A stretch of 64,000 bases of DNA from contig CBDUYM010000012.1 of assembly GCA_965371465.1 (NCBI GenBank), positions 15,821 to 79,820 on the forward strand. The letters run 5' to 3'. The notes beneath the pieces are model-generated. The model was given only the letters and a program-made list of their open reading frames with translations, made no database searches and was not told where the DNA came from. Every line of letters starts with the position of its first letter. The first letter of the stretch is position 1. The position numbers were made by a program, and so were the translations under genes. This document shows, one piece after another, positions 2,800-10,442 of the stretch. The DNA comes from an uncultured Alphaproteobacteria bacterium. GTDB taxonomy: Bacteria; Pseudomonadota; Alphaproteobacteria; CBDUYM01.

Positions 2800-3410
2800 C
2801 CAGGACTGCCAGGCGTCACCATCAGAACTGTAGCGCCTTGCGACCTCGGCATGGGGCCATCATCCCGGCTGGAACAGATCGGGCGCCAGTCCTTATCCGC
2901 CGCGCTGCGGGGGTTGGCGATTGTGCATCGGGGTCTGAACAGAGGCGACGCCTTTGTGGGGGCCGGTGTCGCGGTTTACAGCGAACTTGCCGGGGGCATT
3001 GCCCGGGTTCTGATCCGATTTCTGGCCCTTGGCCTTTTTAAGGGGTTTGGGCTTTCTGGGTTTTTTGGATTTTGGCATGCTTCAATTTCTCACAAGGTAA
3101 ATAGAGGTCATTCAAATGATTGCAGGGCGTGCATCAGCTCCTGCCGTGCGCCCCAGGACACTTTGCGGTTCGTTAAACCCAATTTTTGCGCATTTGCCTG
3201 AACCACTTGTAAGTCACATTGAAGCAGAGTCCGCATACTAACGGGTTTCGCCTGTCCGATCAATGCCTTAGAGCGGCATGACCGCGAAATTTGACCTTTC
3301 GATCAGTTTACGAGACATTGCGGCACGCTTGGCGTTACTGCGTAAGACAGTGACCAACGACCGAGCGAATTCACAGTCATTCAGAAATACCAAGGAAGAG
3401 TGCGGAGCCC

Positions 3411-3929
3411 TTGCGTCCGAAGAAATTTACTGACGATCTTGCCTCAGCCATCTGCCAGCGGATTGCAGCGGGCGAGACCATCCGGCTGATCTGCCAGGAC
3501 GGCGATATGCCCTCGAAGGCGACACTTTATCGCTGGCTCGCGGCTCCGGCTCAGGCAGCGTTTCGCGATCAGTACGCTGTCGCACTTGAAGCGCGTGCCG
3601 AGCTGATGGCAGAGGAAATTTTAGCCATCGCCGATGATGGGGCGAACGACTTTGTCGAGAAGCAGCTTAAATCAGGCGAAATCACCCATGTGTTTGATTC
3701 AGAGCGGGTGCAGCGGTCCCGGCTTCGCGTCGACGCCCGCAAATGGCTCCTCGCAAAAATGCTGCCCCGGAAATATGGCGATCTGGCTGCGCGCAGCAAA
3801 GCGCGTCACGAGGAAGGGCAATCTCAGGATGGAGAACCCGTAGATTACAAACAGGAACTCAATCGCAAACTGGCTCGCCTTGCAGACCAAATCCGCGCGC
3901 GCGAGCTGGATCGAAAGTCTGACGAATGA
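3411..3929 (+). CDS. Phage terminase small subunit
   Basis: 172-aa protein with N-terminal HTH-like segment (ICQRIAAGETIRLICQDGDMPSKATLYRWL) and RSRLRVDARKWLLAKMLPRKYGD, as in small terminases; TTG start; immediately followed by a large-terminase fragment. Confidence 0.6.
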   Translation: MRPKKFTDDLASAICQRIAAGETIRLICQDGDMPSKATLYRWLAAPAQAAFRDQYAVALEARAELMAEEILAIADDGANDFVEKQLKSGEITHVFDSERVQRSRLRVDARKWLLAKMLPRKYGDLAARSKARHEEGQSQDGEPVDYKQELNRKLARLADQIRARELDRKSDE

Positions 3930-4383
3930 TGAGGCTTCGGACTTACTCAAACGCTGGGAGTTCTGGGCACGACCTGAACAGATGGAACCTTCAGGCAACT
4001 GGCGGGTCTGGGCAATTATCGCTGGACGCGGCTTTGGCAAAACGCGAACCGGCGCAGAATGGGTCATGGCCAATGTCACAGGCGATACGCCAATGGCCAA
4101 AGGCCGTTACGGCCGTATCGCGCTGATCGCTGAAACTGCAGCCGACGCCCGCGACGTGATGGTCGAAGGGGAGAGTGGCATTCTGAATATTGCCGCGAAC
4201 AGTTTCCGGCCTACTTACGAACCATCGAAACGTCGTCTGACCTGGCCTAACGGCGCTGTTGCTTCGACGTTTTGCGCCCCTTACCCGATCCAGTTTGGTG
4301 GCGCGATCCAGAATCTTATTCAGTGCCTGTTCAATCGATCGAAACCTGCGTCGGTTGACATCCTTTACCGCTACGCATTGTAG
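3880..4383 (+). pseudogene. Phage terminase large subunit, N-terminal fragment (truncated remnant)
   Basis: WEFWARPEQ and AGRGFGKTRTGAEWV (Walker-A-like) then RIALIAETAADARDVMVEG match the N-terminal ATPase region of GTA/phage TerL, but the ORF stops after 167 aa; full TerL is roughly 400-450 aa and nothing downstream continues it. Confidence 0.55.
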
Positions 4384-5433: not shown

Positions 5434-6705
5434 ATGAAATTTGGTGTATTTTACGAGCTTCAGTTGCCCAAGCCCTGGGATGAGGGGCAGGAGCATGCAT
5501 TGTTTCAGCATGCGCTTGATCAGGTTGTGCTCGCCGACGAGATCGGTATCGATCATGCCTGGGCGGTGGAGCATCATTTCCTGGAAGAATATTCCCATTG
5601 CTCCGCGCCGGAGATTTTCCTGGCCGCAGCGGCGGCGCGGACGAAAAACATTCGTGTTGGCCATGGCATCCGCCAGGTCATTGCAAACTACAACAGTCCT
5701 GCGCGCACGGCGGAATGCATCGCGTCCCTCGATCTTATCTCCAACGGCCGGGTTGATTTTGGTATCGGTGAAGGGGCGACGCGGCTGGAGCTTCATGCTT
5801 TTGATATTCCAGCGCCCGAAAAACGCGCCATGAGCCTGGAGGCTGCCGAACAGATCGCCAATATGATGGCGATGACGCCTTATCCGGGCTATGTGGGAAA
5901 ATCGTTTTCCTTCCCGGCAAGGAACGTCATCCCCAAACCGCTGCAAAAGCCCCATCCTCCCATGTGGATGGCTTGCACCAACCGCGACACGATCAAGATT
6001 GCGGCGCAGAACGGCCTTGGCGCGCTTGCGTTTTCCTTCGTTGATCCCGAGGAAGCCCATAAGTGGAGCGAGATATACTACGACATCATCAAATCTGATG
6101 AATGTGTGCCCCTTGGCCATCGGGTGAATGCGAACATTGCCATGGTCTCATCGTTTTCCATGCATCATGATCGCGCCACCGCCATTCGCCAGGGCCAGGA
6201 GGGGTTCGAGTTCTTTGGCTATGCACTGAGACGCCTTGTAACCGAGGACATTATACCAGGCCACACTGAACATTTCGCAGAATTCCAGAAAATGCGCGGC
6301 AACCGGACCGAAGAGATGATTGCTGAGCTGGATGACCAGTCCGAAGGGATGGAACGTTCCGCCGGCATCGGCACGCCGGATGATTTCCGCAATCACGTCA
6401 ATCAGCTCGAAGCCGCCGGCATCGATCAGGTGATCCTGTTGCAGCAGGCCGGGAACAACACCCATGAACAGATCTGCTCTTCCCTGAACCTGTTCGCCGA
6501 AGAGGTGTTGCCCGAATTCAAGGCCAAGGTCGCCGAGAAGGAAGCGCGGAAAGAAAAGGAACTTGCGCCTTACATTGAGGCGGCGCTTGAGCGGAAAGAC
6601 AAAATGCCGGCACCTGCGGTGGAAGACATCCCGATCGTCAAGGCCGCTGTTGACACCAAAGCCTTCAACGAACGCCGCTACGCCAACCGCAGGAAGGCGG
6701 AGTAG
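5434..6705 (+). CDS. LLM class flavin-dependent oxidoreductase (luciferase-like monooxygenase family)
   Basis: Start refined to MKFGVFYELQLP (ATG 5434, preceded by AGGGGGAGAG); typical LLM N-terminus and length (423 aa). Confidence 0.85.
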   Translation: MKFGVFYELQLPKPWDEGQEHALFQHALDQVVLADEIGIDHAWAVEHHFLEEYSHCSAPEIFLAAAAARTKNIRVGHGIRQVIANYNSPARTAECIASLDLISNGRVDFGIGEGATRLELHAFDIPAPEKRAMSLEAAEQIANMMAMTPYPGYVGKSFSFPARNVIPKPLQKPHPPMWMACTNRDTIKIAAQNGLGALAFSFVDPEEAHKWSEIYYDIIKSDECVPLGHRVNANIAMVSSFSMHHDRATAIRQGQEGFEFFGYALRRLVTEDIIPGHTEHFAEFQKMRGNRTEEMIAELDDQSEGMERSAGIGTPDDFRNHVNQLEAAGIDQVILLQQAGNNTHEQICSSLNLFAEEVLPEFKAKVAEKEARKEKELAPYIEAALERKDKMPAPAVEDIPIVKAAVDTKAFNERRYANRRKAE

Positions 6706-7293: not shown

Positions 7294-7707
7294 TCAGGCC
7301 GGGTTCGTCTCGAAGTGAGGTATGGCCGGGTCAAGGTGAGCCCAATCCGGCGCTGAGGACGTCCACACGTTCGCCAATAATTTGAGTCCATTCGGGTCAT
7401 CCAGTGCGCCAGCTTTCACTACACTGCGTTCCGGCCTCGCGCTGCTGCCGGCGAAAAGCGGCGTGCCGCAATCCGGACAGAATGAACGCCAGACACTATT
7501 GCCGCTGTCGGCCTTGTTTTCGAAAATTTTCGGTTCGCCGCCTATCATCCTGATCTGGTCGCTGGCGATCGGCAGGCTGAACGCAGGCGCGCCACCCGAA
7601 ACATACTGACATTCCCGGCAATGGCAGGCGACGAAGGCGGTAGGCTCTGAGATCAACTCAAATCGAACCGCGCCACACATACAGCCACCTTTGATGGGCA
7701 GATCCAT
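7294..7707 (-). CDS. GFA family protein (glutathione-dependent formaldehyde-activating enzyme / CENP-V-like)
   Basis: Cys motifs GGCMCGAVRFE...CHCRECQ...CPDCGTPLF. Confidence 0.8.
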   Translation of the reverse strand: MDLPIKGGCMCGAVRFELISEPTAFVACHCRECQYVSGGAPAFSLPIASDQIRMIGGEPKIFENKADSGNSVWRSFCPDCGTPLFAGSSARPERSVVKAGALDDPNGLKLLANVWTSSAPDWAHLDPAIPHFETNPA

Positions 7708-7957
7708 GAGTATCTCCTACAGAATAAACTTTGTTTTATATTGACTTCAAAGACATATGAACATATAAAACACAGATCATAAAAAGTCAAAAAAAATTGA
7801 ATTTGTAAACTGTGAATACTATTTTATGAAGAGTATGAAACCAAATTTTTTCGAGTACTTGATAAAATGAACTTCATATTTTCTCTAAAAATAAAAAAGT
7901 GATAAACTGAAATTCAAAATAAACTGATCTATATACGAAATATGAAATGAAGTTGCT
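7708..7957. promoter_or_regulatory. AT-rich (about 75% AT) 250-bp divergent intergenic island with a TTGACT-N17-TATAAA promoter-like element facing hipA
   Basis: Composition differs sharply from flanks; TTGACT at 7741-7746, TATAAA at 7764-7769 on the plus strand; repeated short motifs (aataaact twice). Confidence 0.45.
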
Positions 7958-9196
7958 ATGGCCCAATCACTTTGGGGAAATGTATATCTAGACGGCGGTT
8001 ATGCGGGACAATTGCAGGAAGAACCTGGCGGTCGCTGTGTCTTCATTTACGACGCTGCCTGGGTGGCCGAACGCCGGCCGGCCATCGCCCACACGCTGCC
8101 ACTTCGAGACGAACCTTACATAGACGAAAGGGGCTTGCACCCGTTTTTCGACAATCTCGTTGCGGAGGGGTGGCTTCGGAATGCCCAGGCCCGCGTTCTG
8201 GACGTAGCTCCGAGCAACGGATTTGCCCTGCTTCTCGGATTTGGCAGCGACTTGGCGGGGGCTGTCACTGTTCTTGATCCAGAACAGTCTGCGCGCAGAG
8301 TGTTGGACCAGCCCGATGAAGCAACGAGTGCTGCAATGAAGGGCAGCGCCTCCCTCTCTGGCATCCAAAGAAAGCTGCTCCTGATCAAAAAAGGTAAAGG
8401 CTTTCTGCCTGTCGGACCTGGGGAGCCAAGTACGCACATCGCGAAATTATCTTCGGGAGAACATCAGAACATTCTCGCACTGGAGTATCTGACTACAATG
8501 GCTGTGCGTCATCTGCTGCCAGACGATGACATCGTAGACATGGAAATCATGTTTCTTCCGTCTATTGGCGAAGAGGCACTGGTCATTCCGCGATTCGATA
8601 GGGCGCGGTCCGGGCGACGTCTGCATTTTGAGGAATTCAATCAACTGTTAGGGAAGTATTCAGGCGACGATAAGTACGAAGGGGCGTACCAGGACATGGG
8701 GCATTTCATCCTCAACACGCCAGGCTGCGTTCCGGCTGAGGCGGATCGCCTGCTTCGTCGAATTCTGGCCTGCTTGCTGGTCGGCAACACAGACGCACAT
8801 TTGAAGAACTTCGCGATGTTCCATACCCCGAATGGTCTGCGACTTACGCCTGCCTACGATCTGGTCGCTGGCTCGTACTATGCGGACTATCAGCGAATTG
8901 CTCTGACCGTTGGCGAAGCTCATGATCTGGATATCGGCAAACTGCAAGCGAAGCACCTGTTGTCCTTTGGCGAGGGCAGCTTTGGGGTCGCGGAAGACGC
9001 GGTCGTGCTGGCAATCGAACAGCTTGGAAAGCGGCTGTCGCTTGCACTCGCGGCGATCGAAGAATCGGAATTCGGCTCAAAGGCGCTGCGCACGACGCTA
9101 CAGGAAAGAATGGAGAAGAGATGGAACGGCAGTTTCGCATCAACTGGCCAGCTATTGTCGAAGAGGCAAAACAGAGACGCAAGAGCGAGCGGTTGA
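7958..9196 (+). CDS. hipA: HipA-family serine/threonine kinase toxin (type II TA toxin)
   Basis: 412 aa; HipA N-terminal domain pattern (FFDNLVAEGWLR...LLLGFGSDLAGAVTV), GIQRKLLLIK and catalytic-loop-like VGNTDAHLKNFAMF. Confidence 0.85.
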   Translation: MAQSLWGNVYLDGGYAGQLQEEPGGRCVFIYDAAWVAERRPAIAHTLPLRDEPYIDERGLHPFFDNLVAEGWLRNAQARVLDVAPSNGFALLLGFGSDLAGAVTVLDPEQSARRVLDQPDEATSAAMKGSASLSGIQRKLLLIKKGKGFLPVGPGEPSTHIAKLSSGEHQNILALEYLTTMAVRHLLPDDDIVDMEIMFLPSIGEEALVIPRFDRARSGRRLHFEEFNQLLGKYSGDDKYEGAYQDMGHFILNTPGCVPAEADRLLRRILACLLVGNTDAHLKNFAMFHTPNGLRLTPAYDLVAGSYYADYQRIALTVGEAHDLDIGKLQAKHLLSFGEGSFGVAEDAVVLAIEQLGKRLSLALAAIEESEFGSKALRTTLQERMEKRWNGSFASTGQLLSKRQNRDARASG

Positions 9197-9588
9197 CGCA
9201 GGAACGTCTTGCATCCCTGGCAGGCATAAGTACGCCGACAGTCTCGCGTTTTGAAAACGGCATAAGGGACATCACGCTTTCTTCAGTGATGAAAATTCTT
9301 CGTGTGTTGGGAATGGTTGACGAGCGCGTCATGGAATTCGACGATCCGGCTGCCGGATATGATTTGGATAGGGATCTGGTTTACTTCACCGGACAGATCG
9401 GAAGCGAAGCCGTGCCTTGCGCAATCAGCCGTGAAGCTCTGGAGGATCATTTTGAAAAAGGCAAGAAGAGTCTCCTACAGACTTATCAGGCGAACAGCGT
9501 GCACATTAATCATGAAGCCCGACGCAAGTATCTGGCGCAGAGTCTGGAATCCAATGGTTCCATATTGATTAGAACCGAAGACTTCTGA
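9121..9588 (+). CDS. XRE-family HTH protein with about 90-aa C-terminal extension (putative HipB-like antitoxin encoded downstream of hipA)
   Basis: HTH LTQERLASLAGISTPTVSRFENG; ATG 9121 preceded by GGAGAAGAG; overlaps the 3' end of hipA by 76 nt in another frame. Confidence 0.7.
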   Translation: MERQFRINWPAIVEEAKQRRKSERLTQERLASLAGISTPTVSRFENGIRDITLSSVMKILRVLGMVDERVMEFDDPAAGYDLDRDLVYFTGQIGSEAVPCAISREALEDHFEKGKKSLLQTYQANSVHINHEARRKYLAQSLESNGSILIRTEDF

Positions 9589-9617
9589 CGCGAAATTCAG
9601 ATGCGTCCTGGGTCCGC

Positions 9618-10442
9618 CTAGATCCCGAAATCGGCGCCAGCGAGATCGGGGTCGGTGTTCAGATATTTGGCGGTCGCATCCTCCAGCGCATCAGGCCAGG
9701 TCGCGCCAACTGTGGTGCAGATGTTGCGGGCCAACGGGAGATAGCTGCGTGCCACACCAGCATTGGCGGCAATGACGGATGCTTCGTCATCGGCGACTGC
9801 CGGGATGGATCTCAGAAGTTCCTGCTGATCATCAGTGAGGACAGGAAGGAGCTTCTTGCCGCTCGGCCGGGCGCTGGCTGGCGGGGTCATCAGCATCATC
9901 TCGATCAGCATATTTCGGAGAAGATTGAACCCTTCATGGCCGATATGGACGTCCTTCCGACCATTGACCACGACTGAGAGTCCAAGGACCCGGAAAAATT
10001 CGCTGACATGCCCTTCAATGAGCTCCTTCGGCGGGGCGGGCAGCTCCGGCGTATCGGGCACGCCGTCGTAGACATTTGTCGGATCGTAAACTGCGATCAG
10101 GGGCTGATCGAGAACGCCGGAGTCCATTTCGCCGAGCGAAAGATCAACACGGAGCCAGCCTTCTGTAATCAGACTGAGTACACGCATGCCGCCAAAATCG
10201 AAGTTGTTTTCAAGGACCAGAGGATCGATCTCGGCCACCAGGCCGCGCATCTGATCAGAGAGCTCATCCATGTCGTCTTCGGCAGCGATGATCGTCAGAT
10301 CAAGATCACTGAATCTATCGGCGGTCTCTTGTGCGGCTGAGCCTGAAATAAAGCTCGCCTGAACTTTTGGATGGTTCGTCGTCCAGTCGGTGAAAGCCTC
10401 CAGAACAGGGCCATAGGCTGGATCAAGCATTGAAATGGGCAT
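9618..10442 (-). CDS. Nucleotidyltransferase, aminoglycoside 6-adenylyltransferase (ANT(6)/AadK)-like family
   Basis: N-terminal pattern VQASFISGSAAQETADRFSDLDLTII (GS...D.D nucleotidyltransferase motif) and overall layout resemble AadK; assignment from recalled sequence similarity, not a search. Confidence 0.55.
   Translation of the reverse strand: MPISMLDPAYGPVLEAFTDWTTNHPKVQASFISGSAAQETADRFSDLDLTIIAAEDDMDELSDQMRGLVAEIDPLVLENNFDFGGMRVLSLITEGWLRVDLSLGEMDSGVLDQPLIAVYDPTNVYDGVPDTPELPAPPKELIEGHVSEFFRVLGLSVVVNGRKDVHIGHEGFNLLRNMLIEMMLMTPPASARPSGKKLLPVLTDDQQELLRSIPAVADDEASVIAANAGVARSYLPLARNICTTVGATWPDALEDATAKYLNTDPDLAGADFGI

Follow-up and report, generated by a model that had tools for sequence, protein, structure and literature searches.

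In the canonical hipBA operons, the gene of the helix-turn-helix (HTH) antitoxin HipB is located upstream of the gene encoding the kinase toxin HipA, and several phased palindromic operators are found in the promoter. The hip operator of E. coli has the sequence TATCC-N8-GGATA. The reversed gene order is known, too. Gerdes et al. classed Hip kinases by their gene context, and the main text of that study names 8 hipAB and 12 hipEB (HipE) modules in which the HTH gene lies downstream (mBio 2021, PMC8262856). For the GI21 hipA-hipB pair of Shewanella putrefaciens CN-32, also in reversed order, toxicity, neutralisation and autorepression were observed in experiment (PMC8978831). Here we describe a toxin-first pair consisting of hipA and an overlapping partner gene, which encodes a protein with an HTH and a DUF1488 domain, in an uncultured Alphaproteobacteria bacterium (contig CBDUYM010000012.1). 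The whole stretch analysed, 64,000 nucleotides in length, is referred to as the window.

The kinase gene and the gene of its HTH-DUF1488 partner are a conserved two-gene cassette and not a local oddity. We consider it likely that the module in the window is a Hip-family operon of the type II toxin-antitoxin (TA) kind, self-contained and autorepressed, in which the toxin precedes the antitoxin; the context supports this reading well. The locus, as taken from the list of open reading frames (ORFs), Pfam, sequence composition and the sequence itself, comprises the following features.

7958..9196, plus strand: hipA, HipA Ser/Thr kinase of 412 aa, ATG start (ORF list, Pfam)
9121..9588, plus strand: HipB-like partner of 155 aa, ATG start, in a frame different from that of hipA (ORF list, Pfam)
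9121..9196, plus strand: overlap of hipA and the partner gene, 76 nt, the selected frame being that of the partner
9112..9115, plus strand: Shine-Dalgarno (SD) sequence GGAG of the partner, within the hipA codons M-E-K-R-W (sequence)
7708..7957, plus strand: AT-rich regulatory region 5' of hipA with operator-like palindromes (composition)

HipA contains both Pfam domains expected of a full-length kinase, as had been claimed in the initial annotation: Couple_hipA, the N-subdomain (aa 8-105, nt 7979-8272, 85 bits, cut-off 22.5), and HipA_C, the kinase core (aa 132-356, nt 8351-9025, 125.6 bits, cut-off 30.5). The absence of an upstream HTH gene was confirmed as well. There is no HTH ORF in the 250 bp intergenic stretch 7708-7957 (24% G+C in a neighbourhood of about 57% G+C), and the next gene in 5' direction, encoding a protein of the GFA family (7294..7707, Pfam), is located divergently on the opposite strand. 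The overlapping XRE-HTH ORF was found as annotated, too, with 155 aa, a start 76 nt before the hipA stop and another frame; the order in front of it, GGAG (9112-9115), AAGAG and ATG (9121), agrees with the strong SD sequence reported.

Profile searches with both proteins returned Couple_hipA/HipA_C, HTH_3 and DUF1488. HTH_3 extends over aa 17-67 of the partner (nt 9169-9321, 48 bits) and DUF1488 (PF07369) over aa 72-149 (nt 9334-9567, 45 bits, cut-off 22). The highest scores of the HTH go to HipB/Y4mF models, four different HipB proteins are its closest HTH matches among solved structures, and a conserved N-terminal helix precedes it. The C-terminal domain takes the fold of 2gpi. The about 90 extra C-terminal residues that had been described as being of unknown function are thus present, but they are not an unrecognised sequence: they belong to a Pfam family with a solved fold. 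A search of 5.8 billion proteins yielded 232 relatives of the partner, nearly all of them 153-157 aa in length and containing both domains.

Scanning one genome per species with a profile of the partner gave 76 loci. In about 70 of these, the gene immediately upstream has the same orientation, overlaps the partner start and encodes a HipA homologue (50-70% identical). Conversely, a HipA profile detected 80 loci in metagenome contigs; 68 of them include 400 nt or more of sequence downstream, and in all 68 the partner starts inside hipA. The overlap in both sets (134 loci) comprises 76 nt in 79 loci, 70 nt in 33 and 91 nt in 16, with other lengths in 6. The partner start was ATG without exception (152/152 loci), and GGAG was present at -14 to -4 from this start in 140 of 152 loci. 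The surroundings differ between loci, some holding housekeeping genes and others transposases, AbiE, DndB, Fic or type I restriction genes, and none of the four genes neighbouring the module in the window recurs in the 76 genome loci.

These loci define a large Hip sub-family with hundreds of members, mostly from metagenome-assembled genomes. Most hosts are uncultured Gamma-, Alpha- and Deltaproteobacteria, Legionellales and Rickettsiales. Vampirovibrio and a small number of isolates, for example Vineibacter terrae, are also among them. A plasmid collection searched with the partner contained no full-length relative, the Clostridium matches being unrelated HTH regulators.

The overlapping partner ORF is no chance ORF, judging from the pattern of variability. 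We determined the nucleotide variability (in bits) of each codon position across 75 loci. Upstream of the partner ATG it tracks the hipA frame (position 3, 1.52 bits; position 1, 1.07; position 2, 0.63), and from the ATG on it tracks the frame of the partner (0.95, 0.67 and 0.46 bits for positions 3, 1 and 2, respectively). The switch falls exactly at the partner's ATG. Furthermore, the first 25 residues of the partner (MERQFRINW...EEAKQRRK), which are encoded inside the overlap, are among the best conserved in the 232 relatives. Since selection in the overlap follows the frame of the partner, the last 23 or so residues of HipA are largely passenger. The hipA stop lies within conserved Leu-Thr codons of the partner (xTG ACx), as read from the sequence, which explains the fixed overlap lengths. 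A functional C-terminal tail of HipA in the overlap was considered and rejected, selection there being that of the partner's frame. The HipA tail after W389 (9124-9196) seems to be conserved (RWNGSFASTGQLLSKRQ...) only via the conserved N-terminus of the partner.

Compared with canonical hipBA, the module in the window shares the kinase architecture and motifs, a HipB-type HTH and several phased palindromic operators in the promoter. It differs in the position of the HTH gene, which is located downstream here and upstream in hipBA. Canonical HipB is half as long and ends in a short tail, in place of which the partner has the folded DUF1488. The operator of the family, ATAAA-N6-TTTAT, of which one copy abuts the toxin start codon, is unlike that of E. 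coli, too.

The hipEB and hipAB modules (PMC8262856) resemble the locus in having a HipA-homologous kinase with N-subdomain-1, a downstream HTH gene and a presumed TA function. A kinase with N-subdomain-1 and a downstream HTH gene, as found for hipEB, are both present in the window. The main text of that study calls the partner HTH protein HipB, does not use the term 'DUF' and mentions no operators, and the word 'overlap' was not found in it. Moreover, these sets are small (12 and 8), whereas the HTH-DUF1488 family counts hundreds. The toxin-first gene order is also shared with the pair of S. putrefaciens CN-32 (PMC8978831). There, however, HipA has 448 aa, HipB has 152 aa and a C-terminal HTH, DUF1488 is not reported, and the genes are 4 bp apart, in contrast to the overlaps of 70-91 nt in our family. 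Neither the C-terminal HTH nor the 4-bp gap of the CN-32 type is found in the window, where the partner has its HTH at the N-terminal end (aa 17-67) and the overlap of the genes amounts to 76 nt.

The architectures of HipBST and YjjJ/HipH were excluded. In HipBST the kinase has no N-subdomain, which is encoded separately by hipS, whereas Couple_hipA is part of the 412-aa protein in the window. YjjJ/HipH carries an HTH fused to the kinase N-terminus and is monocistronic; the HipA of the window has no HTH, and it scores only 28 bits with the NCBIfam YjjJ model, far below the cut-off of 401. The described members of DUF1488/PF07369 (2gpi, which is Shew_3726, and E. coli YrdB) are stand-alone proteins about 85-90 aa long for which neither a function nor a partner is known. 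In the window, by contrast, DUF1488 follows a HipB-like HTH in one protein, and this protein is linked to a kinase toxin.

The proposal of the initial annotation, a variant or undescribed Hip module, can therefore be upheld only in part. The reversed order has already been published (PMC8978831 and, as far as its main text goes, PMC8262856), but no paper joining DUF1488 to HipA was found in the searchable literature, and DUF1488 is not mentioned in the NetFlax TA survey. What is apparently new is the HTH-DUF1488 architecture of the partner together with the operator layout, the distinction from HipE being based on the descriptions. Likewise, the link between a kinase toxin and DUF1488 apparently has not been described before.

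The palindrome ATAAA-N6-TTTAT was found by aligning the sequences upstream of hipA; its extended consensus is TATAAAaTATAtTTTATA. Allowing at most one mismatch, 169 matches were counted in 12.2 kb of upstream sequence and 39 in the 443 kb that make up the rest of these loci, an enrichment of about 158-fold. The matches peak at -97 (-98/-97), -57 and -16 from the hipA ATG, i.e. with a spacing of about 40 bp, and the three peaks were seen again in the independent metagenome set. The third palindrome of the family ends at the last base ahead of the hipA ATG. In 49 of 75 promoters the first and the second site flank a TTGNNN hexamer, which is located 16-17 nt before the TAAAnT of the second site (O2) in 36 of 75, indicating that O2 of the family probably covers the -10 element. 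A four-base SD-like match at the hipA start was detected in only 13 of 120 cases. In the window, the following sites were found.

7862..7877, plus strand: operator-like site at the O1 position (-96), ATAAAATGAACTTCAT, 1 mismatch
7902..7917, plus strand: operator-like site at the O2 position (-56), ATAAACTGAAATTCAA, 2 mismatches
7942..7957, plus strand: degenerate site at the O3 position (-16), abutting the hipA ATG, ATGAAATGAAGTTGCT, 3 mismatches
7724..7739, plus strand: extra perfect palindrome at -234, ATAAACTTTGTTTTAT
7919-7934: extra site, 1 mismatch
7765-7780: extra site, 2 mismatches

The region 7708-7957 holds 3 palindrome matches with no more than one mismatch, while 0.16 would be expected from its own composition (P about 4e-4), and 3 of the 4 matches of the whole 64-kb window fall into it. 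The presence of the operators fits an autoregulation of the canonical hipBA type, with binding being predicted. O1 and O2 of the window contain the two copies of a 17-nt repeat, TGATAAAATGAACTTCA and TGATAAACTGAAATTCA, at a distance of 40 bp. A terminator scan of 7600-9800 gave two terminator-like sites, both within coding sequence and at chance level.

The solved proteins closest to HipA of the window by sequence are Shewanella oneidensis HipA (4pu3/4pu5, E 5e-18) and E. coli HipA (E 2e-12). In the alignment with the latter, S132 corresponds to the autophosphorylated S150, K163 to the ATP-binding K181, D279-A-H-L-K-N284 to the catalytic motif D309-N314 (D-x-H-x-K-N) and, in Y300-D301, D301 to the Mg-binding D332. 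The Gly-rich loop with the adjacent Ser is S132-L-S-G-I-Q-R-K139. S132, K163, D279, N284 and D301 are unchanged in 56 family members. A kinase without catalytic residues, which would have argued against the initial annotation, is therefore not what we found: all motif residues are present. By its sequence HipA of the window is a complete kinase with every catalytic motif kept and is predicted to be active.

From these data the following mode of action can be proposed for the TA operon. Dimers of the partner would repress the promoter by binding to the three palindromes, which follow each other at intervals of about 40 bp, one just upstream of the -35 element, one over the -10 element and one against the hipA start codon. 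Like HipB, the partner would bind HipA via its conserved N-terminal helix and the HTH and hold it inactive. The ribosome-binding site of hipA seems to be weak at best and would be buried in the third operator, whereas the internal GGAG-N5-ATG of the partner is strong; the antitoxin could be kept in excess in this way even though its gene is the second one. If the partner is lost or titrated, HipA might phosphorylate an essential target, by analogy an aminoacyl-tRNA synthetase, and growth would stop. The targets underlying this analogy are GltX and TrpS, named for HipA and HipT in the main text of PMC8262856. The regulatory architecture itself is clear, with three phased operators, of which one lies at the toxin start, and, within hipA, a strong ribosome-binding site for the putative antitoxin. 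The module would show how a toxin-first operon can still keep its antitoxin in excess.

The partner is not always combined with DUF1488. The Vampirovibrio loci L070, L072, L073 and L074 (about 2844-4273) have this hipA, too (53% identical), with an overlap of 91 nt and three consensus operators in front, but the partner has only 72-90 aa with the HTH, and there is no DUF1488 remnant downstream. In an exhaustive HMMER search with partner residues 1-70, this type of N-terminus was found joined to other C-terminal domains. One of these has about 97 aa (P0346, P0378, P0400), another occurs in P0334, and a third of about 270 aa is present in P0416, P0422 and a protein of Sinorhizobium meliloti pSymA; the domains of about 97 and 270 aa match no Pfam family. 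P0378 and P0346 are encoded downstream of, and overlapping, a HipA with 48% and 44% identity, respectively; at the pSymA locus the kinase is 31% identical and the overlap amounts to 25 nt. The loci of these sister hipA clades are the following.

L166, 2423-4083
L169, 2835-4498
L077, 1823-4002 (S. meliloti pSymA)

Neither of the two pSymA genes appears in the feature table of the plasmid collection, which is incomplete.

The constant element is thus the N-terminal helix with the HTH, and the C-terminal domain can be exchanged. DUF1488 probably serves as an accessory module (for stability, oligomerisation or the sensing of a trigger) rather than as the core of neutralisation; it is here that our account is weakest. 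DUF1488 occurs outside the Hip context as well. P0408 (469 aa, L168 4001-5410) is a Fic enzyme with a C-terminal DUF1488 about 37% identical to that of the window, and its gene adjoins genes for SIR2 (SIR2_2) and HerA-like proteins. In P0354 (190 aa, L167), DUF1488 is joined to a different, non-HTH N-terminal domain. The searchable literature on DUF1488 reports an unusual fold, E. coli YrdB and a frequent Xanthomonas integron cassette, and no function. With the HipA kinase toxin and the cis fusion to a Fic enzyme, the domain gains its first consistent functional context. It might be speculated that DUF1488 is a swappable input module for trigger sensing or enzyme regulation, acting on HipA in trans via the HTH protein and on Fic enzymes in cis; we regard this generalisation as unlikely. 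If it were true, there would be a family of signal-gated toxin or defence modules, and a first function would be assigned to DUF1488 and with it to E. coli YrdB and the common integron cassette of Xanthomonas.

Such a sensing role is also part of another explanation for the module, which overlaps with the TA operon: an anti-phage abortive-infection module in which DUF1488 senses a phage trigger and releases or activates HipA. We consider this a possible, if rather doubtful, alternative. Its precedent is DS-6 from the DefensePredictor preprint, a validated anti-phage system of a HipA-family kinase and a DUF3037/DUF1829 protein, for which kinase activity is needed. DS-6 resembles our module in combining a HipA-family kinase with a non-canonical partner made up of domains of unknown function; it differs in the partner domains and in that its partner is unlike HipB, and the anti-phage role belongs to DS-6. 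Several loci of the family adjoin DndB, AbiE, Fic, type I restriction-modification or AAA/DUF4276 genes and transposases, but many others, the window included, are located among ordinary metabolic genes. The fusion of the same DUF1488 subtype to a Fic enzyme beside SIR2 and HerA-like genes and the swappable C-terminal domain, which recalls the sensor swapping of defence systems, would fit a defence role. On the other hand, no specific PADLOC model matched (only generic HTH and weak matches were obtained), and in a library of predicted viral protein folds only the HTH was found among the top matches and the DUF1488 fold in none of these.

Alternatively, it might be that the partner is a transcriptional repressor only, as is HipB of HipBST, and that HipA is restrained by its own N-subdomain and by autophosphorylation of S132. 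In HipBST, according to the main text of PMC8262856, HipB is not the antitoxin and the HipS/N-subdomain element inhibits the kinase; S132 is invariant in the family, and the operators speak for a regulatory role directly, whereas neutralisation by the partner is deduced. However, HipB neutralises HipA in all studied two-gene hipBA/hipAB pairs (PMC8978831 and the main text of PMC8262856), and the strict co-inheritance and the asymmetry of the ribosome-binding sites in favour of the partner fit an antitoxin, which makes this explanation improbable. Still less probable, and very unlikely in our view, is a signalling pair, a possibility raised in the initial annotation, that serves the control of transcription and not the poisoning of the cell, with HipA phosphorylating either the HTH-DUF1488 protein or a target that DUF1488 recruits. 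The partner does have a folded extra domain which could serve this purpose, but matches to the palindrome cluster at the promoter of the module itself (3 of the 4 in 64 kb; 158-fold enrichment upstream of hipA), pointing to autoregulation and not to a regulon, and the patchy distribution independent of context is that of a selfish or accessory cassette.

Several observations weigh against a working TA operon in the window itself. We infer toxicity, neutralisation, DNA binding and the kinase target. The sites at the O1, O2 and O3 positions are weaker than the consensus, O3 being especially degenerate, and a sigma-70 consensus scan of 7600-9800 gave no promoter. At nine positions with a conservation of 90% or more in the family (residues 30, 35, 80, 104, 110, 130, 150, 169 and 174), HipA of the window has a different residue; R130S, adjoining the Gly-rich loop, R150L and E174A are among these changes, and no motif residue is affected. 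Because of these nine departures the copy in the window could be weakened or differently regulated. The structure prediction for HipA was of low confidence (mean predicted local distance difference test score 58, shallow alignment), and the model was not used.

Together with a nearest relative that is only 78% identical, the degenerate operators, the missing consensus promoter and the departures in HipA would also be expected of a decaying or silenced remnant of the cassette. We assign a low probability to such a decay: both ORFs are full length in the 64-kb window, with no frameshift or stop; the catalytic residues and the SD sequence and ATG of the partner are all intact; the partner differs at just 4 conserved columns, at 3 of them conservatively; and the upstream region is still enriched in palindromes.

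The partner is subject to an annotation artefact. The public protein identical to the partner in the window has 131 aa (P0001), a length that fits translation from a TTG at 9193, directly ahead of the hipA stop. Many of the 'DUF1488-only' proteins of 89-126 aa encoded beside hipA are truncated calls. The called gene of L160 has 91 aa, for instance, but the ORF 5809..6276 encodes the full 155 aa, and in L159 a called gene of 99 aa compares with the ORF 5833..6300 for the full 155 aa with the HTH. JGI gene calls of the partner are usually full length. Some gene callers truncate the partner because of the same-strand overlap of 70-91 nt. With the truncated calls the HTH disappears from the annotation, so that surveys relying on annotated neighbours run the risk of missing or misreading the HTH-DUF1488 hipA family.

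A convergent gene on the minus strand (9618-10442) ends 29 nt past the partner stop. Its product shows weak nucleotidyltransferase matches (Polbeta, aminoglycoside adenylyltransferase-like) below the cut-offs and weak matches to PADLOC candidate systems, too. We rejected this nucleotidyltransferase-like gene as a third component of the module because it was found in none of the 76 related genome loci. A search of the whole 64-kb window against Rfam gave zero matches. Among nine neighbouring ORFs run against Pfam (two of them without any match) no further phage genes were found beside a 172-aa ORF at 3411-3929, about 4 kb upstream of hipA, which matches the small terminase subunit of the phage Sf6 type (E 9e-39).

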